A stretch of 27,370 bases of DNA from assembly GCA_016839765.1 (NCBI GenBank), contig JAEOTP010000041.1, forward strand, positions 1 to 27,370, in the 5' to 3' direction. Every line of letters starts with the position of its first letter. Positions within the stretch are counted from its first letter, which is position 1. The position numbers were made by a program, and so were the translations under genes. A model generated the notes under the pieces. It saw only the letters and a program-made list of their open reading frames with translations. It made no database searches and was not told the origin of the DNA. Source of the stretch: Promethearchaeota archaeon. GTDB taxonomy: Archaea; Asgardarchaeota; Lokiarchaeia; Sigyniarchaeales; SOKP01. Shown here in pieces: positions 17,723 through 27,370 of the stretch.

Positions 17723-19288
17723 ATGGAGGGATATAATTCTGAAAGGATTACTTCTGAAGAGATGACAATATTAGATAATAATTCTGAATGGCTAGGTATA
17801 GACAAAGCTCAATTAATGGAATGCGCTGGTTACTCATTCGCAAGTGAAATTTTCACTAAATATAATCTGGACTCTTATTCTAAAGTTCTAATTTTTTGTG
17901 GCACAGGTAATAATGGAGGAGATGGTTTTGTTGTTGCTCGTCATTTAAATTCGTTGGGAATAAAAACGATGGTCATTTTAGTAGGTGATCCTGAGAAAAT
18001 TAGGACAAAAGAAGCAAGGTCAAATTGGAATATTATAAGAAACAATTTAAATCATTTAATAGAAGTTGAGATTTTAAAAGATTCAACTGATATTGGAAAA
18101 ATTGGAGTATTACTAGACGAGGATAAAAATTTTGAATTAATAGTTGATGGATTATTAGGTACGGGGATTAAAGGGAAAATTAGAGAACCGATTGCTACGG
18201 TTATAGATTTTATAAATGAAATTAACATCCAATTTAAAATTCCAGTTGTTTCCATTGATGTACCATCCGGCTTAGATCCAAATACAGGTGAGGTTTTAGA
18301 TAAATCGATTAAGGCAGATTTAGTTATTACGTTTCATAGAATAAAGGAAGGTTTACATCCTAAAACTGAATATATAAATGAATTATTAATTAAGTCGATT
18401 GGAATTCCTCATGAAGCTAGCTTACTTATTGGAAGAGGTGATCTATTACCTACCTTAAAAATAAGAAAGAAAGACGCCCATAAGGGACAATTTGGAAGAA
18501 TATTAGTAATTGGAGGTTCAAAAAATTATTCTGGAGCTCCTGCGTATTCATCGCTTACATGTATTAATTTTGGCTGTGATTTAGTCATAACTTATGTTTC
18601 TGAAGTTGTTGGAGAAGTTATTAGGAGTTATTCTCCAAATTTAATTGTAAGAACTAATCCGGGGGATTGGTTAACAAATAGCTCGTTTGAAGAGTTAAAA
18701 TCTTTAATAGATTGGTCAAATACATTAATAATAGGTCCAGGTTTAGGTTTAGAAGAAGAAACTGAAAAATTATTGGTACAAGTTCTTGAATATCTAAAAA
18801 TTAATAAAAAAAGGTATGTGCTTGATGCAGATGCGTTAAAATTAATTAAGAAACACCTTAATTTAATTAAAAACGAAGATGTTATCTTAACTCCTCATGA
18901 GGGAGAATTAAAAATCTTAACCAATATTGATTTACCCCCTTATGATGATATTGAAGAAAGAGGTCGGAAAATTTTCAAGTTAGCAAAAAAGTTAAAAGTA
19001 AATCTGTTAGTTAAAGGTCCTTATGATTATGTTAGTGATGGTGTTAAATTAAAGATTAATAGAACTGGTTGTCCAGAAATGTCAATTGGAGGAACAGGAG
19101 ATGTTTTGGCAGGACTTTGTGGTTCCTTTTTAGCCATCAATAATGATATTTTTCAGGCTGCTTGCTCTGCAGCATTTTTAAATGGATATATTGGTGAGTA
19201 TTGCAAAAAAAACATAGGACCGCGATTTACAGCGATGAATATGATTGAAAATATAAATAATGCAATTTTAACACTAAAAAAAGTTTAG
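17723..19288 (+). CDS. nnr: Bifunctional NAD(P)H-hydrate epimerase/dehydratase (NnrE-NnrD)
   Basis: LMECAG, CGTGNNGGDG, DGLLGTG and IDVPSG (YjeF-N); HKGQFG, IGGSKNYSGAP, IGPGLG, LDADAL, TPHEGE and GGTGDVLAG (dehydratase). Confidence 0.97.
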   Translation: MEGYNSERITSEEMTILDNNSEWLGIDKAQLMECAGYSFASEIFTKYNLDSYSKVLIFCGTGNNGGDGFVVARHLNSLGIKTMVILVGDPEKIRTKEARSNWNIIRNNLNHLIEVEILKDSTDIGKIGVLLDEDKNFELIVDGLLGTGIKGKIREPIATVIDFINEINIQFKIPVVSIDVPSGLDPNTGEVLDKSIKADLVITFHRIKEGLHPKTEYINELLIKSIGIPHEASLLIGRGDLLPTLKIRKKDAHKGQFGRILVIGGSKNYSGAPAYSSLTCINFGCDLVITYVSEVVGEVIRSYSPNLIVRTNPGDWLTNSSFEELKSLIDWSNTLIIGPGLGLEEETEKLLVQVLEYLKINKKRYVLDADALKLIKKHLNLIKNEDVILTPHEGELKILTNIDLPPYDDIEERGRKIFKLAKKLKVNLLVKGPYDYVSDGVKLKINRTGCPEMSIGGTGDVLAGLCGSFLAINNDIFQAACSAAFLNGYIGEYCKKNIGPRFTAMNMIENINNAILTLKKV

Positions 19289-19455
19289 CTCTTTTTAGGT
19301 TAATAATGGGATAAAATTATACTCCATATTTGTAATATTAATTTACACAAAATAATATCTGAAGATAAAAATTTATTAATTCATTACCTATTATTATAGT
19401 AAAAAGTTATCTTTGTTTTTATAATGATAATGATACTCGGTTGAGGAATAATAAA

Positions 19456-20304
19456 ATGACACAAGTTTTCAAAATTAATATGGACGGGACAACAAGCGAA
19501 CTAAAAACTGAAGGGTCCATTAAAGATATCTTAAAAACCGAAGAATGCTATGTTTTAGTGTCAGATGAAGTTCGGAAAGTGTATCTATGGAAAGGCGTAG
19601 AAAGTAATGTGAGATCAAAATTTATTGGGGCAAAAAGGAGCCAAGAAATACGTGGACAAGTTGGTATGCATTATGCTGTTGTACCTCAAGACGAGGGCGA
19701 GGAAGAAACAGAGTTTTTAAAGTTAATTGGTGGAAAAACAGAAGGCGGGATTGCAAAAGAAATAAAAGCTGACGAAAAACCGGCAACTAAAGCGGCTCCT
19801 GCGGTACACCCCTTTAGGGAAAAAGATCCTTTTGGCGCTCCAAGACCTGCTGAGGGAATGAATATAGCAGGAAGTAGAGATCATGCTTCTCAAAATACTG
19901 GCCCACTTTATACTGGTAAAGAATCCTTAGCAACCCTTATGCAGGATGAAACACATGTAAACTTTGAACAAATTATGCAAAAGCTGGAAGAAATTAAGAT
20001 CCCTGATGGTTTTGAAAGAGAATTGATTATTATTGGCAATCATGCGTATTCAGTCGTTGAAAAGGTTCAAACATTTTTAGGAAAGAAGGAAGTTTCAAAA
20101 GAGATTTCTAAAGTAGGAACTGTACCTGAAGGAGTCTTTTTTGCCGAAGATTATTCACCACGAATATTATCTGAAAATGGTAAAATTCTAGCCATTGAAT
20201 TTTTAAAACGAGCTGGAGGACCTGAAGGTACATCTATTGAATATAAATCTAAAAAAGAAATTTTAAAAGATCAAATTAAAACACAATTAGAAAGCAAAAA
20301 ATAA
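19456..20304 (+). CDS. Gelsolin-domain protein, Asgard one-domain gelsolin plus C-terminal X domain (1DGelX-like)
   Basis: L.TEECYVL...KVYLWKG.ESNVRSKFIGAKRSQEIR...QDEGEEETEFLKLIG matches the gelsolin repeat consensus. A linker and C-terminal domain (IPDGFERELIIIGN) follow. SD GAGGA precedes ATG 19456. Confidence 0.85.
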   Translation: MTQVFKINMDGTTSELKTEGSIKDILKTEECYVLVSDEVRKVYLWKGVESNVRSKFIGAKRSQEIRGQVGMHYAVVPQDEGEEETEFLKLIGGKTEGGIAKEIKADEKPATKAAPAVHPFREKDPFGAPRPAEGMNIAGSRDHASQNTGPLYTGKESLATLMQDETHVNFEQIMQKLEEIKIPDGFERELIIIGNHAYSVVEKVQTFLGKKEVSKEISKVGTVPEGVFFAEDYSPRILSENGKILAIEFLKRAGGPEGTSIEYKSKKEILKDQIKTQLESKK

Positions 20305-20448: not shown

Positions 20449-20838
20449 ATGAGTGATTTAAGCCCAGAAGAAGCTCATAGCTTATCTAAATTTCTTGGAA
20501 GCATAACTGAATACACAGAATTAGAAGCCCTCGCGTTAGTTACTCGTGATGGTCTAAGGCTCGCTTTTTCTTGCATTCCAGATTATGAAGTAGACCCCGA
20601 TTTATTTTCTAGCTTAAGTGCTGTAGTAATGCAGAGCGGTCAAGATGCAATTGATTCACTTGGATATACAGATCTACTTGAAGTTGTATTAAGAGGAGAA
20701 GATGCATTTATAATACTAAGTGCAGCAGGTAGATTTTTCCTTATGGGTGCGAGTCGTAAAATTGAAGATTTAGGAAAAATTGTTTCCGTGTTTCGGTATT
20801 ATTCAGCTGAAATTTCGAAAAGATACCCTCTCATATAA
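20449..20838 (+). CDS. Roadblock/LC7 (MglB/LAMTOR-like) domain protein
   Basis: 129 aa; LEALALVTRDGL...VDPDLFSSLSAVV...LLEVVLRGEDAFIILSAAG is the Roadblock pattern. Confidence 0.9.
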   Translation: MSDLSPEEAHSLSKFLGSITEYTELEALALVTRDGLRLAFSCIPDYEVDPDLFSSLSAVVMQSGQDAIDSLGYTDLLEVVLRGEDAFIILSAAGRFFLMGASRKIEDLGKIVSVFRYYSAEISKRYPLI

Positions 20839-20942: not shown

Positions 20943-23090
20943 ATGTCTGAATTAAAAATTTTTGTTGATGTTAATGAAAATACCACTGGAAAAGTGGTTA
21001 TATGTCAAGAAAATGCGAATAAATTGGGAGTATCTAATGGAACATCAGTTGAAATAGAAAATCCAGATAATAATACGAAGACTTCAGGCACTGTAGAAAT
21101 TTCAAATATGGTTTTAGATTTTGCGGCTCAAATCTCTAAAAATATTATAGATCAGCTTCAATTTAGTGGAGTAGAATTAATAATAAGACCTATGAGTAGT
21201 ACTGGTTTAGTAGCTCCTAAATTACAGATACCAAAAGTACCTGCTCCGCAACCAGCTCCTCAACAACAACCCCAAACCCAACCAGGACTAACGCCGCTTC
21301 CAATACCTCCTCCTAGACCTACTCCACAACCAACTCAAGCTCCAACACCTCAGTCAGCTTATACTCCACCCCCTCAACCCACTCCAACACCTCAACCAAC
21401 ATATACTCCACCTCCACAACCTACACCAGCACCAACGCCACCACCATCATCTATCCCCCCTCAACCAATACCCCAACCAATGCAACCATCAATTACAGGA
21501 CCAGATTATGGTGCTCAAGCGCCAACAGCAGAACCATACCCCAATAGAATTGATGTATACATGCTTCAAAGTCAAAAGGGAGGTATTATCCTAACGCCTG
21601 TTATTGATAATAATATTGAAGGAGGGAGAATACAACTTAATAGTAATATTATTCATCAATTGGGACTTGGTTCTGGTTTACTTGTAGCATGGGAAGACCC
21701 ACTAACTAGAACAATGGGTTCTGCTAGAATTGATGAAGCTATGATAAGTCCTACCGAAATACGAATGAGTAGAAATACTAAAGAAGATACGAATATTCAT
21801 GCCCAACAAGTAGTTGTATATTCTACTGAACCTCCCATCCAAAAAGCATCTGAAATTATGCTGGAAGTCCATTCTCAACCTAATCTATTAGGTTATTGCT
21901 ATGTAACCCCCAGAACTCAATATACATTATCATTAAACCCAAATGATATTTTAGCTTTTGAAGATGAACTTACTGGGGCTATTGGAGCCGCAAAAGTCGA
22001 AATCTCTGAAGCTACTCCAGCTAATTCGATTACTATTGATAGTGAAATATTAGAAGCTTCTGGAATTGGTAGTTTTGAGGTCAAAGTATATAAAAATCTC
22101 CGTCCAGTTATCCCCTTACAAAATGTAGCCCTTGGTATCTCTCCTATTAGTGGGGAGAATATGTGGGAAATTATTAGCACGGCACGTCAAAATGTAGATT
22201 CTTTAAAAGGTTGGTTAGCCAATTATATCATCTTCAAAGGTATTAAATTGAGATGGAGCGCAGTTAATATCGCATGTTCTTTATTAAATACCATTCCAGA
22301 TCTAACTGGTGATATTTTTGCTCAAATTACTGGAAATACTGCGATTAATTTAACTCCAACTGGCCTAATACCATTCAATGCTATATTAATCATTGATATA
22401 AGCCGTTCGATGATGGCGAGGGATGTATTTGTTACTAATATCGCCCCTGCTATCGAAGGAATTAAAGCAGCAATGGAATCACGTGAAATTCAGGAATTTC
22501 TTGTCCATTTCAAACCTGGAGTTAATATCCCTAGACGTATCGCTGCGGCATTTGCGGCAGTTTTATTTCTAAGCGAAAAGGTAGGTAGAGGATTTGGAGA
22601 AAAAGTCTCAGTAATACGATTCGCAGACGAGTCTCAAATATTACCATTTACGGACACCTTTTATATGGACTCTGCCAGTGGAAAAAAAGGTGTGCTTGAA
22701 GATGCAGCGCGTATGATTGTAGACCGTATTGGAAATGCTTATGGTCAGGCGACTAATATGGGATCAGCAATGGCAAAAGCGCACCAAGTTCTTACAGAAT
22801 TTGATAAAATTAACCCCGATCAGCCTACTATGGTTGTTCTCCTCACAGATGGAGTTCCCACCGATGGTGATGACTTCTTTAAATCAGTTAAACTCTTTGC
22901 AGAAAATCCAAACGTAGTCATTTATATTGTAGGTCTTGGAAATCCTGATCGTGAACTGATGATCCGTGCTGCTTCTTTATGTGGTGGAGAATATTTTGAA
23001 CCAGAAGATGCGGGAGAGTTATTGATTTGGTATTCAAAGAGAGCTCGTGATTTAACGGTTAAATTGAAAGCCCATAAACACGAATTATAA
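20943..23090 (+). CDS. vWA-domain protein with three Cdc48-N-like double-psi beta-barrels and a Pro/Gln-rich linker
   Basis: MIDAS DISRS (22395-22409), ATNMG and LLTDG; VYIVGLG; A...GGEYF. Three repeats resemble G.(V/I).I.......LG...G..V..E.P/E. Confidence 0.85.
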   Translation: MSELKIFVDVNENTTGKVVICQENANKLGVSNGTSVEIENPDNNTKTSGTVEISNMVLDFAAQISKNIIDQLQFSGVELIIRPMSSTGLVAPKLQIPKVPAPQPAPQQQPQTQPGLTPLPIPPPRPTPQPTQAPTPQSAYTPPPQPTPTPQPTYTPPPQPTPAPTPPPSSIPPQPIPQPMQPSITGPDYGAQAPTAEPYPNRIDVYMLQSQKGGIILTPVIDNNIEGGRIQLNSNIIHQLGLGSGLLVAWEDPLTRTMGSARIDEAMISPTEIRMSRNTKEDTNIHAQQVVVYSTEPPIQKASEIMLEVHSQPNLLGYCYVTPRTQYTLSLNPNDILAFEDELTGAIGAAKVEISEATPANSITIDSEILEASGIGSFEVKVYKNLRPVIPLQNVALGISPISGENMWEIISTARQNVDSLKGWLANYIIFKGIKLRWSAVNIACSLLNTIPDLTGDIFAQITGNTAINLTPTGLIPFNAILIIDISRSMMARDVFVTNIAPAIEGIKAAMESREIQEFLVHFKPGVNIPRRIAAAFAAVLFLSEKVGRGFGEKVSVIRFADESQILPFTDTFYMDSASGKKGVLEDAARMIVDRIGNAYGQATNMGSAMAKAHQVLTEFDKINPDQPTMVVLLTDGVPTDGDDFFKSVKLFAENPNVVIYIVGLGNPDRELMIRAASLCGGEYFEPEDAGELLIWYSKRARDLTVKLKAHKHEL
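21231..21543 (+). repeat. Pro/Gln/Thr-rich low-complexity linker with two YTPPPQPTP units (21360-21386, 21402-21428)
   Basis: PKVPAPQPAPQQQPQTQPGLTPLPIPPPRPTPQPTQAPTPQSAYTPPPQPTPTPQPTYTPPPQPTPAPTPPP. Confidence 0.9.
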
Positions 23091-23184
23091 TAAAAAACCC
23101 TTTTATTTCTCCTAATAATTATGTAGTAATAATTATACAGATTTAAGACAAAAAATGTATTTAAAAAATGAATGATGAATTTAA

Positions 23185-23487
23185 ATGGATAAAGAATCCT
23201 TAGCTATCTTATCTCTAGTATTTGGCATCATTGCCTGCGTCGCTACATATTATATAATAATTGCTACGATTTTTTTCACTGACGATACTTATTCTACAAT
23301 TACTTTTATCCTTATTCAATTCCGTTTCGTGCTTCAATTAATATCGATGGTTTTATCGATGACCTCAATTGTTCTAGGCATAATTTCTATAGCCATGAAG
23401 CTAAAAAGGGGAGTCTCCATAGCTGGTGTGGTATTAGGAGTTGTTTCTCTAATCAGTTTACTTGGACATTATTTGATATTTGATTAA
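23185..23487 (+). CDS. Small three-TM membrane protein
   Basis: LAILSLVFGII...SIVLGIISI...SIAGVVLGVVSL, a DUF4190-like pattern. Confidence 0.75.
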   Translation: MDKESLAILSLVFGIIACVATYYIIIATIFFTDDTYSTITFILIQFRFVLQLISMVLSMTSIVLGIISIAMKLKRGVSIAGVVLGVVSLISLLGHYLIFD

Positions 23488-23503
23488 ATAAGATTCAAAT
23501 TAA

Positions 23504-23692
23504 GTGGAAAGTTACCACTTGTTTAGGAAAACCGTTATACAGAATTTAGCAGATCAAAATTATATTGAAGTATTTGAAATAATGACCAATGGAGAAATCA
23601 AGATATTTGATGAAGACAAGTTAACAAAGGGGATTTATATCATGAAAAGTAGGAAAGAGTTTGAAAAACATTATTTCAGAGATGAACTTTAG
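23504..23692 (+). CDS. Short hypothetical protein or fragment
   Basis: GTG-start 62-aa ORF filling a gap; no motif recognised. Confidence 0.3.
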   Translation: MESYHLFRKTVIQNLADQNYIEVFEIMTNGEIKIFDEDKLTKGIYIMKSRKEFEKHYFRDEL

Positions 23693-23750
23693 GAATGGTT
23701 GGCACTGAATTTCATCTTTAACTGTTTACTTTGTTGAGACAAACACTATT

Positions 23751-24236
23751 TCACAATATTCTAGAATCACTTGTTGGAGGATCTATTTCTCCTTTATTTC
23801 GGTTAAAAAGATCAACCATAATATCATAGAACGCTGCTTTTCTTTGTAGAAAGTGAGCTTTATCTTCCCTCTTATTTTTTTTTAATACCATTTTCCAATC
23901 TAGCAATTTTGGATTTCCTTTTTTATCTACTATTAACTTTCCCTTCTTTCGTTTTTTTACTGTTATTAATAATACACCATCACTCTTTCGAGTAATACCA
24001 TGTACGTCGTGCCATCGCACCCATCTACTTTTTCCTGCGTAAAGACCTGCATATGGACTCATCTGTGATTTTATTCTCCATGCAAATCCCTTATTACTGG
24101 CAATTAAGAAACCCTGATCATCACGACGTCTGCATTTAGAGGTTATTATTGGATCGCCTATTGAATCCGTTCTCATCATTTTTTCAAATTTATCTACCCT
24201 ATCGGGAGAGACTTCCCATCCTTTAATTATTGTTAT
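23751..24236 (-). CDS. Basic PH-like-fold protein; probable ATA start at 24236 (first ATG at 24179)
   Basis: GFLIASNKGFAWR...WVRWHDVHGIT...GVLLITV plus a C-terminal helix, as in PH/GRAM-like folds. The frame extends 19 codons upstream of the ATG (ITIIKGWEVSPDRVDKFEK). Confidence 0.7.
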   Translation of the reverse strand: MTIIKGWEVSPDRVDKFEKMMRTDSIGDPIITSKCRRRDDQGFLIASNKGFAWRIKSQMSPYAGLYAGKSRWVRWHDVHGITRKSDGVLLITVKKRKKGKLIVDKKGNPKLLDWKMVLKKNKREDKAHFLQRKAAFYDIMVDLFNRNKGEIDPPTSDSRIL

Positions 24237-24531
24237 ATATCATCACTTTGCTTTTTTTTAATTATAATAAATTTTGTCTTTAATATTCTATATATTATCA
24301 GATTATTTATAATTTTAATATTTGAAGATAATTCGTTCTTTGGGCTTTTTTTTATTAGAAGTAACAGGAATTGGTTATATTTAAGATAATGAACTGATAT
24401 GGTGAATGTGAGCATAAGTAAAAGATTTAAGTAGAACAATTTTTTTTATACTACTTTCAATAGGTTTGTATAAAATTTTTATATTTGAAACTTAATAATA
24501 ATTATAACTAAAATTACAATAAGTTGATTCT

Positions 24532-24933
24532 ATGAAAGAAGTTAGAGTGATTACCATTGACAATAGAGGTCGAATTGTAATTCCTCAGCTAATTCGAAAG
24601 AGCTTGGGTCTCACTACGAACTCACAGTTAATGCTCGTAGCAGATTCGGAAAGTAAAGAGATTAAGATTACGCCCATAGGTTTAGCTGATGAGAAAAATC
24701 CAATTAAGCTTCGGATCACGATGAGAGACGTTCCTGGGGCGCTTGCTAAACTTGCAAATACATTTGGAGAACAAGATCTAAGTATGATGTATAGTGAAGC
24801 AGTGATTATAGAAAAAGATAAAACTGCTGAATGGACTGTTATTTCAGAGAGTCCTGCTAATCTCGAAAACCTTAAAAGAATTCTGAAAGAAAAAGGTGAT
24901 GCCCTCAAGATAGAGGTTCTTCCATTAGATTAG
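24532..24933 (+). CDS. AbrB/SpoVT DNA-binding domain fused to ACT domain (amino-acid-responsive regulator)
   Basis: ITIDNRGRIVIPQLIRKSLGL (AbrB) and LRITMRDVPGALAKLANTF (ACT). Confidence 0.9.
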   Translation: MKEVRVITIDNRGRIVIPQLIRKSLGLTTNSQLMLVADSESKEIKITPIGLADEKNPIKLRITMRDVPGALAKLANTFGEQDLSMMYSEAVIIEKDKTAEWTVISESPANLENLKRILKEKGDALKIEVLPLD

Positions 24934-24961
24934 GTTAAAAAAAATTTGTTGATTAATTCAA

Positions 24962-25699
24962 ATGGCTAAAAAAAAGAAGAAAGATAAAAAGAAAGAAAAA
25001 GACGAGGTATCTAATTATACTCTAGATACTGCTTTAAAAAGTTCTAAAAAAACAGAAACCACTTTACAGGGTTTACTTAAAGCCTTTTCAGAAGATACTG
25101 GATATGTAGCTCCTAAGGAAGAAAAGAAAAAAATTGAACCTCAGCTTTCATATGAAACTAAAAAAAAGATTGCTGAGGATTACATGATGGAAGAAATTCC
25201 ATTATCAGAACGAGGGCAGACGAAAGAAAGAACTCCACTAAAAGCAATAGAGGACGAAAAAATAAAGATACTTCCAAAAGAAGAAAAGGAAGAAGAAACG
25301 CTTAAAACCATAAAAAAACCTTCACTTTCTAAAAAGGATAATATTTATCTTGATTTAGCGCAGTTCTTTGAAAAAGTATTTCAAGGTTATGGTGATCGTT
25401 ATGGAATGTGGGAAAATTCAATTTCATCAATTCTAGCAATTTTAAGAAAAATGAGAAAAATAACAAAGAAAAATACAGAGGATTTAGTTAATACAATTAA
25501 CACATTACATGAAAAAATTCAGTTTAATTTAGGACAGTTTAAAATTAAGCGAGATGAAGTTGAAAAATTAACGGATGTTGACATTGAATCTATGTCGAGT
25601 GAGTTTAAAAAAGTGTTAGGCTTATTGGAATTACAAATTAAGGAATATCAACTAAAAAGACTCGCGGATGATTATGTTCATCAACAAAGACCCATCTAA
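24962..25699 (+). CDS. Lys/Glu-rich protein with C-terminal coiled-coil helices
   Basis: 245 aa, charged disordered N-half and heptad-rich C-half; in an apparent operon with the ARP. Confidence 0.8.
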   Translation: MAKKKKKDKKKEKDEVSNYTLDTALKSSKKTETTLQGLLKAFSEDTGYVAPKEEKKKIEPQLSYETKKKIAEDYMMEEIPLSERGQTKERTPLKAIEDEKIKILPKEEKEEETLKTIKKPSLSKKDNIYLDLAQFFEKVFQGYGDRYGMWENSISSILAILRKMRKITKKNTEDLVNTINTLHEKIQFNLGQFKIKRDEVEKLTDVDIESMSSEFKKVLGLLELQIKEYQLKRLADDYVHQQRPI

Positions 25700-25747
25700 G
25701 GATATATTATTAAATAATACTCTTAACTAAAAAATTGAAGATTTTTT

Positions 25748-26893
25748 ATGTCCTCGAAACCAAAAGACCAAACACGTCCTTTAATTCTTGATTTCGGTTC
25801 GGCTATTTCAAGGATAGGATGGGCAGGTGATGATTTTCCAGACATAATTGCTCCGAGTGTATATGTAGATATTTCTGACTATATATTCACTTCTGATATT
25901 ATTGAAGGATTAGAAGAATTATTTCTCAAAGAAAGTCCAATTACACATCTAGTAGGTCATCAAGCGTTAAAATATCAAAATATCTTACGAATTCATGAGT
26001 TTAAAAAGGAAAATAATTTCAATATACTGCTTAAATTTTTTTTGCATTATTATCAAGAACTGAAAATTGATGAGCAATATCAATTTCGGCAACCACTAAT
26101 TATCCTAACGCCATTTTTCATATCTGATTTAGAGAAATCAAAATTACAAGAATTATTTCTTAATTCATTAAATTTTCCTTCACTTCTTTTCTTACATGAA
26201 AGTCAGGCGATTCTTTCTACATTACAAAAATCTAGTGGCGTGGTTGTAAATATGGGTGAATCTACTACTTACATATCAACAATTTTTCATGGATTTACTA
26301 ATATAATGGCCCGAGATGTTTTTCCTATTTCTGGAAAACAATTAACAGATTATTTCTTAAATCTAATTTTAACTCGAATTGGGACTAAAAAAAGCATTTA
26401 TATTGATAATTCAATTGCAAAAGAAATTAAAGAAAAATTGTCCCTATGTTTATTAGATCCTAAAGAGGAACAAAAAAGAGTAAAAGAAGGATTGACTAAA
26501 TATGATAGAATTATTGATCTTCCAGATGGATCTAATTTAAAGCTTAATTTAGAACGCTTTTTATTAACAGAACCCCTATTTAATCCAAGATTAGCTCATG
26601 TTGATTATATTGGGTTAGCAGAAGCTGTTTCAAAAGTAATAAAGACATGGGAGAGAGAGAATTGGGAGGAATTAATCCCTAATATTATTTTATCTGGCGG
26701 TGGAAGTCTAATCCCCGGATTAGATAAAAGATTAGAATTTGAGTTACAAGCATTTTTCTCAGAAAAATTAAAAAACAAAATTAAAGTAATTGCTGCCTCT
26801 GGAAGAGATAATATGGGCTGGATAGGGGCTTCAATTCTATACTCAAAAGAAAAATTAAATAAGGGTTGGGTAGAAAATCCAAATTTAAAATAA
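25748..26893 (+). CDS. Divergent actin-related protein (Asgard ARP; not the conserved lokiactin)
   Basis: LILDFGS..SRIGWAGDD.P....PS, QAILS, IAKEIKEKL, LPDG....L..ERF...EPLFNP, NIILSGG.SLIPG...RL..EL, WIGASIL. Confidence 0.93.
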   Translation: MSSKPKDQTRPLILDFGSAISRIGWAGDDFPDIIAPSVYVDISDYIFTSDIIEGLEELFLKESPITHLVGHQALKYQNILRIHEFKKENNFNILLKFFLHYYQELKIDEQYQFRQPLIILTPFFISDLEKSKLQELFLNSLNFPSLLFLHESQAILSTLQKSSGVVVNMGESTTYISTIFHGFTNIMARDVFPISGKQLTDYFLNLILTRIGTKKSIYIDNSIAKEIKEKLSLCLLDPKEEQKRVKEGLTKYDRIIDLPDGSNLKLNLERFLLTEPLFNPRLAHVDYIGLAEAVSKVIKTWERENWEELIPNIILSGGGSLIPGLDKRLEFELQAFFSEKLKNKIKVIAASGRDNMGWIGASILYSKEKLNKGWVENPNLK

Positions 26894-26911
26894 TATAAAA
26901 TTTCAAAAACC

Positions 26912-27370
26912 ATGACTGTTCATTTATCTACAGAAAGTACTTTTTTAGAGGTTTTCCAACAAAAAATTATACAGAGTAGGCGTTTATTGCAATTTGGTAA
27001 TCATAGATGGGCAGATAGACTATTAACCGATTTATATTTCGAGATTGAAAAAAACGAATGGTTAGACATCCAAAAGAAGCACCAGTTAATAATGGTAATT
27101 TCAAATTCTTGGTGGATGTACATTAATTCATTGATTCATAGAACTGAAGGAAAAATAGATATTGATATGATTAAATATATTGATGCCTATAAAAGATTCT
27201 TTTCATTTCTATCAAAATTGGATGATTTTTATATTTTTAATAATTTTGTAACTAACCTTCTAAAGTCATTCATAACTATGAAAGATTTATCTCAATCAGG
27301 TATTACTAAATTTATAAATTCTTATTGTGTAAAAGTTAGTGAAAGAAAAGACTATCAGAAGTTAATAGAA
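26912..27370 (+). CDS. Alpha-helical hypothetical protein, truncated by the right edge (not in ORF track)
   Basis: ATG 26912, open to the window end: MTVHLSTESTFLEVFQQKIIQSRRLLQFGNHRWADRLLTDLYFEIEKNEWLD...; starts 18 bp after the ARP stop. Confidence 0.8.
   Translation, partial: MTVHLSTESTFLEVFQQKIIQSRRLLQFGNHRWADRLLTDLYFEIEKNEWLDIQKKHQLIMVISNSWWMYINSLIHRTEGKIDIDMIKYIDAYKRFFSFLSKLDDFYIFNNFVTNLLKSFITMKDLSQSGITKFINSYCVKVSERKDYQKLIE

Follow-up and report, generated by a model that had tools for sequence, protein, structure and literature searches.

What is the role of an archaeal protein that carries Cdc48-type N-domain barrels and a von Willebrand factor A (vWA) domain, but no AAA+ ATPase? The question is raised by a 715-residue open reading frame (ORF) in a 27,370-nucleotide stretch of DNA from a lokiarchaeial genome (Promethearchaeota archaeon, assembly GCA_016839765.1, contig JAEOTP010000041.1), referred to throughout as the window. 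The product of this gene, here called the barrel–vWA protein, strings together three barrels, a proline-rich linker, a small alpha/beta subdomain (Nc) and the vWA domain. From structure prediction, profile and structure searches and the comparison of gene neighbourhoods, we arrive at a reading in which we place about even confidence, namely that the protein is a multivalent, non-catalytic docking scaffold, neither enzyme nor motor, that serves a ligase/hydrolase system and is tied to gelsolin.

Domain architecture

An AlphaFold2 model of the full-length protein, computed from an input alignment of 76 sequences, has a mean predicted local distance difference test (pLDDT) score of 87, with values above 95 in the folded parts. 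Three similar beta-rich repeats had been picked out in an earlier, sequence-only reading of this locus and taken for double-psi barrels, and the model bears this out: each of them (N1, N2 and N3) follows the strand-strand-helix-strand-strand-strand-helix-strand order that defines this fold. Self-BLAST found no internal repeats in the protein. Profile-profile comparison (hhalign, with profiles cut from the family alignment) joins N1 to N3 at 98.4% probability (E 8e-15), N2 to N3 at 98.5% (E 2e-15) and N1 to N2 at 93% (E 2.5e-7), and the Nc segment, which served as an internal control, matched none of the barrels. The three barrels are homologous.

The same reading had called the barrels Cdc48-N-like and had noticed an Nc-like segment behind the third one, and profile and structure comparisons bear out the first, structure comparison in part the second. 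Of 59 family members, 15 are recognised by Pfam CDC48_N on the barrel equivalent to N3 (best E 3.8e-7), with no score reaching the curated cut-off of 35.1 bits; Molydop_binding, a second double-psi barrel model, picks out 13 of the 59, and N1 gives weak matches to both families. Against PDB sequences, the family profile finds designed double-psi barrels (E 2e-4), the Cdc48 N domain at residues 43-116 (E 7e-4) and DEPDC5 at residues 37-124 (E 2e-3), the last aligned to N3. A profile of the N domain only, built from 28 loci, reaches the designed barrels in the PDB at only E ~0.6, so the sequence signal for the barrel varies with alignment depth. Foldseek likewise returns Cdc48-type N domains, and N3 together with Nc aligns to the whole AAA+ N domain 8rhn_E over 191 columns, with a template modelling (TM) score of 0.65 on our protein and a root-mean-square deviation (rmsd) of 4.7. 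As modelled, N3 and Nc resemble a full Cdc48/NSF-type N domain.

The vWA domain that follows retains an intact MIDAS (metal ion-dependent adhesion site), as had been read from the sequence: D485, S487, S489, T604 and D636 are all present, and across the 59 relatives no variation is seen at D485, S487 or D636, while S489 and T604 are kept in at least 90%. The family is further marked by an insertion of ~45 residues after the first vWA strand and by the motif EKVGRGxGEK. A model of N3, Nc and vWA only has a pLDDT of 93 and a predicted TM score of 0.84, for which reason we take the N domain and the vWA domain to form a single rigid unit. An ESM Atlas look-up returned generic vWA clusters only, and the matches of both VIA-align searches were all single-domain vWA structures, which places a two-domain arrangement outside the reach of those searches.

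Neither Walker A nor Walker B patterns occur in the protein, and Pfam finds no AAA or other catalytic family in it or in the 59 relatives, in keeping with the earlier remark that no AAA ATPase is present. ORF and model agree that the chain ends 10 residues past the vWA domain. The protein thus has no recognisable catalytic domain, and for this reason a scaffold or adaptor role fits it.

The linker between N1 and N2, which had been described as Pro/Gln-rich, is 114 residues long and consists of 39% Pro, 15% Gln and 13% Thr; its coding sequence contains a 42-bp tandem repeat at 21340-21433 (Tandem Repeats Finder, period 42, 2.2 copies). Orthologues have linkers of 64-236 residues that are mostly Pro-rich. 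The window as a whole is AT-rich, with ~29% GC, and the rise to as much as 40% GC in the first kilobase of the gene is due to its proline codons.

Distribution and modular variants

An exhaustive search of 1.84 billion representatives retrieved 267 relatives and delimits the conserved unit of the family as barrel N3, Nc and vWA, about 410 residues in all, which we refer to as the core. In a search of 5.8 billion clustered proteins there were 440 matches; over residues 195-715 each of the best 120 shows 80% identity or more, and none of their names goes beyond “VWA domain-containing protein”. Of 400 genomes surveyed in the phylum, 255 gave a match to the protein family, and 16 listed taxonomic families lack it (0/31, 0/19 and 0/12 genomes, for example). 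The full architecture of barrel, linker, barrel and core, which the sequence-only reading had regarded as unusual, occurs throughout the window's class at 46-100% identity, and other lineages have the core only, at 32-41%. Proteins of 410-500 residues that consist of the core alone come from metagenome-assembled genomes (MAGs) named Thor-, Heimdall-, Sigyn- and Korarchaeota. The barrel–vWA protein itself is single-copy in its own genome, and its identity to orthologues is 70-100% within its taxonomic family and 46-60% across the class, which places it among the most conserved proteins of unknown role in Lokiarchaeia. The core is an unnamed, nearly Asgard-only family in which known domains stand in a new arrangement; no description of it was found in the literature searched. 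The sequencing runs that contain the window's DNA are marine-sediment metagenomes, and no RNA runs are listed among them.

Several relatives recombine the core or N1-type barrels with other modules. P0222 is a fusion of the core with a YbdK-like ligase, P0177 (named Sigynarchaeota) and P0182 carry a ubiquitin-family domain C-terminal to the core (E 3e-5 and 9e-6), and P0175 joins the core to zinc ribbons. Barrels also travel without the core: P0189, a metagenomic protein of 261 residues, consists of a Ras-family GTPase (Pfam Ras, E 5e-32) and a C-terminal barrel 63% identical to N1, and in P0208 and P0236 N1-type barrels on Pro-rich linkers are joined to multi-pass membrane proteins. No ATPase-fused relative was found among the relatives; none of the fused relatives found exceeds 1253 residues, an absence that is weak evidence. 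The metagenomic protein P0121 (932 residues) is 67% identical to the barrel–vWA protein up to the middle of the vWA domain; from there on its sequence is unrelated and seems to include membrane segments, and as a probable assembly chimera it was set aside.

A ligase and a hydrolase accompany the core

Outside the window's own taxonomic family, the core recurs beside a small set of enzymes. Six loci that represent four families of the class (L025, L026, L028, L053, L054, L055) have the contiguous order core, X1, ligase, hydrolase, a different lineage has five loci (L034, L045, L046, L048, L051) where the hydrolase adjoins the core, and the order hydrolase, core, ligase is found in two more (L049, L050). 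The ligase is a carboxylate-amine ligase of YbdK/GCS2 type, as judged from Pfam GCS2 scores above the cut-off, a match to the YbdK structure 1r8g (E 4.5e-5) and the NCBIfam YbdK model (E 5e-12), and the hydrolase is of Amidohydro_2 type. The profile of X1, the third member, found nothing among PDB sequences, Pfam or NCBIfam. In locus L049 (8463-12026, minus strand) and in similar ORFs outside Lokiarchaeia, the YbdK-type ligase makes up the N-terminal third of an ORF of ~1140-1200 residues, the remaining ~750 of which match no family.

In the genome of the window, X1, ligase and hydrolase are direct neighbours on the minus strand of another contig (C96, ~22292-26775; loci L035 and L036), separate from the contig of the barrel–vWA gene. 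The presence and absence of the ligase at the family level is identical to that of the core, the same 16 families of the same 400 genomes lacking both. Phyletic match and gene fusion together make the association of core and ligase a strong one, though the related genomes amount to a handful of independent events. The greater distance between the two in sister genomes looks like the erosion of an ancestral cluster.

The Lokiarchaeial gene string

The neighbourhood within the window is of a different kind. Immediately upstream of the barrel–vWA gene stand a gelsolin-family gene and a Roadblock gene (Table 1). A profile of nine gelsolin orthologues matches Lokiarchaeota 2DGel (7whg_G, E 4e-10), Asgard ProGel (7c2f, E 5e-7) and 2DGel3 (E 3e-6). 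The Roadblock neighbour had already been named in the sequence-only reading; its Pfam Robl_LC7 match stands at E 1.8e-6 and 28 bits against a cut-off of 23, and its profile matches the Roadblock structures 7f8m (E 9e-5) and 9jue (E 2e-4). The arrangement gelsolin, Roadblock, barrel–vWA holds in every one of the 26 loci with enough flanking sequence, among which the Roadblock proteins are 52-98% identical; these loci include two families of the taxonomic order with proteins that share just 40-58% identity. In each of the four more remote loci that were compared, the yjeF gene lies 5' of the gelsolin gene, so the conserved string runs yjeF, gelsolin, Roadblock and barrel–vWA. In a non-Lokiarchaeial lineage, a gelsolin-like gene stands beside the hydrolase-core-ligase group of L049. 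A complex prediction for the full-length barrel–vWA protein with the Roadblock protein scored 0.00, a result that counts neither for nor against binding. The consistent companions of the family are gelsolin and Roadblock in the 26 loci and the set of X1, ligase and amidohydrolase, not an AAA+ protein.

Table 1. Coordinates of the barrel–vWA gene, its domains and its conserved upstream neighbours (positions in the window)
Feature	Position	Strand	Description
NAD(P)H-hydrate repair enzyme gene	17723-19288		bifunctional (YjeF_N + Carb_kinase); upstream of the gelsolin gene
Gelsolin-family gene	19441-20304	+	287 aa; assigned by a profile of 9 orthologues; first of the trio
Roadblock/LC7 gene	20449-20838	+	129 aa; Pfam Robl_LC7; second of the trio
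Barrel–vWA ORF	20943-23090	+	715 aa; barrel, Pro-rich linker, barrel, barrel + Nc, vWA
Barrel N1	20943-21197	+	aa 1-85; double-psi beta-barrel; AlphaFold2 pLDDT 93-98, hhalign
Linker	21201-21542	+	aa 87-200; Pro/Gln/Thr-rich, disordered; pLDDT 38-52, composition
Barrel N2	21555-21827	+	aa 205-295; double-psi beta-barrel; AlphaFold2 pLDDT 94-97, hhalign
Barrel N3	21852-22097	+	aa 304-385; Cdc48-N-like domain, first subdomain; conserved core begins here; AlphaFold2
Nc-like subdomain	22110-22358	+	aa 390-472; alpha/beta; AlphaFold2 pLDDT >90
vWA domain	22377-23057	+	aa 479-705; family-specific insertion after first strand; conserved motif EKVGRGxGEK
MIDAS DxSxS	22395-22409	+	D485, S487, S489; partners T604 (22752-22754) and D636 (22848-22850)

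Downstream (positions 24532-27370) come genes for an AbrB/MazE-ACT protein, a coiled-coil protein rich in lysine, a member of the actin family (Pfam Actin, E 4e-48) and a helical protein. They keep this order in two further genomes of the window's taxonomic family, where identity is 40-68%, and are missing in the neighbouring family of the order. Between the barrel–vWA gene and the AbrB-ACT gene lie a 100-residue protein that is hydrophobic throughout (23185-23487, plus strand) and a basic protein of 142 residues (23751-24179, minus strand); neither has a family match or was recovered in the other loci compared.

A proposed docking scaffold for reversible amide chemistry

We suggest that these observations can be brought together in a model in which the core, a Cdc48-type N domain packed on a MIDAS vWA domain, would offer partner proteins two classical sites to bind, one being the N-domain groove and the other a MIDAS metal ion able to capture a carboxylate of a partner. 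Its ancestral partners would have been the YbdK/GCS2-type ATP-dependent carboxylate-amine ligase, the Amidohydro_2-type hydrolase and X1, a set that could make and remove an amide bond on a substrate, perhaps a protein. In Lokiarchaeia the core would then have gained two extra barrels on a long flexible Pro-rich tether, and these tethered barrels may recruit gelsolin, Roadblock and perhaps a small GTPase, the last hinted at by the fusion of a barrel to a Ras-family GTPase. Because the Lokiarchaeial gene string brings in gelsolin and Roadblock, and because the tethered barrels were added in this same group, we propose that the scaffold probably couples amide chemistry to regulators of actin and of small GTPases.

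Several points weigh against this model. Binding of the barrel–vWA protein to the ligase/hydrolase set, to gelsolin and to Roadblock is read from genomic context. In the protein's own taxonomic family the ligase set lies 9 kb to several hundred kb away (often 9-105 kb, on the same contig) or on other contigs, so direct co-expression with the barrel–vWA gene is not required there. Linkage and co-occurrence come from related genomes and so count as no more than a few independent events; unrelated metabolic genes surround many core-type homologues, and the neighbours of several such homologues (ADH, HAD, radical SAM, Alba, iPGM) form no recurring pattern. X1, moreover, has no recognisable fold or family, and the substrate of ligase and hydrolase could be a small molecule and not a protein.

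The barrel–vWA protein consists solely of interaction domains of eukaryotic style. The tight co-variation of its family with ligase and amidohydrolase, the ligase fusion and the gelsolin neighbour together point to an undescribed Asgard system in which reversible amide-bond chemistry may be linked to regulators of the cytoskeleton or of GTPases. The idea is directly testable, since Lokiarchaeia are in culture and recombinant reagents for Asgard actin and gelsolin are at hand.

Alternative explanations

The alternative that survives best starts from the structure of the core. It holds that the core is an archaeal relative of the N-terminal domain (NTD) and SABA domain of DEPDC5/Iml1 and that, with the Roadblock protein, it organises a regulator of Rag/Gtr-like GTPases. 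We regard this as unlikely, and note that only its functional version competes with the docking scaffold; the version that concerns ancestry is compatible with it. With full-length and core models alike, the top Foldseek matches are DEPDC5 (9xzy, 9o5e_H, 7t3a_A, 7t3b_A, 9v0j_C, 9o5a_B, 8fw5_A) and yeast Iml1 (8adl_W, 8ae6_W, 9h4q_X), with E values of 4e-13 to 7e-10 over 415-444 columns that span the whole 420-residue core, rmsd values of 7.6-8.8 and TM scores of 0.40-0.43, a level (0.43) that can be reached by fitting chiefly one domain. Chains with the N and D1 domains of AAA+ proteins rank behind these (TM ~0.31, rmsd 17-33), yet their E values are merely 1-3 orders of magnitude weaker. The NTD of DEPDC5 has been found to resemble the Sec18/NSF N domain, and its SABA domain to resemble Sec23 (PMC8534245), and the family profile, as described above, places DEPDC5 on barrel N3. 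Apart from the core family, the layout of a Cdc48-N-type domain followed by a vWA-type domain is seen only at the front of DEPDC5/Iml1.

Set against these matches, the likeness is one of architecture only. Pfam IML1 (PF12257) does not match the protein in a whole-genome search at E<=10, nor any of the 59 relatives, and SHEN, DEP and C-terminal domains are all lacking in it. In rigid alignment its vWA domain alone is structurally far nearer to classical vWA domains than to SABA, with DEPDC5 outside the top 50. The genomic evidence divides in the same way. Roadblock folds are abundant in the Rag/Ragulator system, and the Roadblock gene adjoins the barrel–vWA gene; the genome yields about 30 matches to Gtr1/RagA-like GTPases that exceed the Pfam cut-off, a barrel of N1 type occurs in fusion with a Ras-family GTPase, and the core family extends to MAGs named Heimdallarchaeota and Thorarchaeota. 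Yet a search of this 96%-complete genome turned up no NPR2 (PF06218), Roadblock accompanies the family in Lokiarchaeia only, and GATOR1 has nothing that corresponds to the ligase and hydrolase of the wider family. Many of the Gtr1/RagA-type matches fall in ORFs of 300-500 residues, and none lies in the window or near the barrel–vWA gene.

Descent of the core and DEPDC5/Iml1 from a common ancestor is, in our estimate, possible but not probable. We attach similarly guarded credence, somewhat more than to the GTPase-regulator proposal, to a combined account in which the core would be the forerunner of the DEPDC5/Iml1 NTD-SABA unit and already a docking subunit that joined Roadblock, gelsolin and a reversible amide modification system. 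NPRL2-like longins and Rag-like GTPases have been reported in Asgard archaea, with no relative of DEPDC5 (bioRxiv 10.1101/2020.10.19.343400), and the recent structure-based surveys searched make no mention of DEPDC5, Iml1, GATOR or vWA. If the forerunner account is true, the only GATOR1/SEACIT subunit for which no archaeal relative was found reported gains one, and if the likeness reflects descent, another piece of the scaffold of Rag-TORC1 nutrient signalling predates eukaryotes.

The sequence-only reading had itself proposed a stand-alone, Ufd1-like adaptor or scaffold for an AAA+ segregase. Its general part, that of a scaffold or adaptor, agrees with the absence of a catalytic domain and persists in the docking scaffold that we favour; the AAA+ partner and the Ufd1-like role find no counterpart in the genomic context. 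In its full form, a Ufd1/Rpn10-like adaptor from which a Cdc48-type AAA+ unfoldase or the proteasome would receive substrates that may bear a ubiquitin-like tag, the proposal now appears improbable to us. The fold, of Cdc48-N/UT3 type, would suit it, and the genome encodes four canonical Cdc48-type ATPases, but all four genes lie on contigs other than that of the barrel–vWA gene, relatives fused to an ATPase were not found, and no AAA+, proteasome or ubiquitin-system gene occurs in the window or in any conserved neighbourhood. The one hint in favour of a ubiquitin connection comes from the two relatives with a C-terminal ubiquitin-family domain (P0177 and P0182). At the level of single domains, only CDC48_N answers, below its cut-off: CDC48_2 is found neither in the protein nor in any of the 59 relatives, and UFD1 and UIM give no match in the same set, SHP-type motifs not having been searched. 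Cdc48, finally, is near-universal in archaea, whereas the barrel–vWA family is patchy and tracks the ligase.

A third alternative takes its cue from the linker and the cytoskeletal neighbours, and would make the protein an actin-assembly factor whose Pro-rich tether recruits profilin-actin in the manner of formin FH1 or VASP, with the structured domains as an anchor and gelsolin as a cooperating factor. We think this quite improbable, slightly more so than the AAA+ adaptor. The linker is long and contains 30-39% Pro in most Lokiarchaeial orthologues, the adjoining gelsolin gene is strictly conserved, and the actin-related protein lies 2.7 kb downstream in a placement conserved within the family. 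That linkage, however, is confined to one family, and the linker is unconserved in sequence and length, Thr-rich or charged in some orthologues and absent from the wider family. A Pfam-type scan detected no WH2, FH2 or other actin-binding element, and Lokiarchaeial profilins reportedly do not bind polyproline.

That the protein is a regulatory vWA protein controlled by phosphorylation, like ArnB of Sulfolobus, is very improbable, since in ArnB the vWA domain leads into a beta-sandwich and then a helical domain at the C-terminus (PMC12852372), the latter two of which are missing here, where a Cdc48-N-type domain precedes the vWA domain instead, and no FHA/zinc-finger partner or kinase is present in the conserved neighbourhood.

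Comparison with known systems

Set beside the systems whose parts it shares, the barrel–vWA protein resembles each of them in one respect and departs from it in another. The N domains of Cdc48/p97/VAT, NSF, Pex1/6 and SPATA5, and the UT3 domain of Ufd1, also have a double-psi barrel, together with a second small subdomain to which the Nc-like segment may correspond. In Cdc48-type proteins an AAA+ ATPase comes after the N domain, whereas here a vWA domain takes its place and the barrel is triplicated; the CDC48_N score of 12 bits contrasts with 72-91 bits for the genome's four true Cdc48 genes.

DEPDC5/Iml1 (Sea1) shares the order of folds along the chain, an NSF/Cdc48-N-like domain and then a vWA-type domain that resembles the Sec23 trunk. 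The difference lies in the vWA domain, which in our protein has an intact MIDAS and stands nearer to classical vWA domains than to SABA, and in the company it keeps: compared with GATOR1/SEACIT, the genomic partners are ligase, hydrolase and gelsolin, NPRL2/3 were not found, and the adjacent Roadblock protein is not a longin. Classical MIDAS vWA proteins such as ArnB, Rpn10, TFIIH p44/Ssl1 and ITIH1 in turn have flanking domains that differ from those of the barrel–vWA protein in every case; with ArnB the vWA domain alone is held in common, and the FHA/zinc-finger partner on the ArnB side is ArnA.

A possible analogue of the proposed docking scaffold for reversible amide chemistry is pupylation, in which the ligase PafA and the deamidase Dop work with a docking ATPase. 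The hydrolase described here is of Amidohydro_2 type and not a paralogue of the ligase, and neither a Pup-like tag nor an ATPase was identified. By analogy, both systems nonetheless bring together the same three elements, namely a carboxylate-amine ligase of glutamine-synthetase/GCS-like type, an enzyme that reverses the bond and a protein with substrate-docking barrels.

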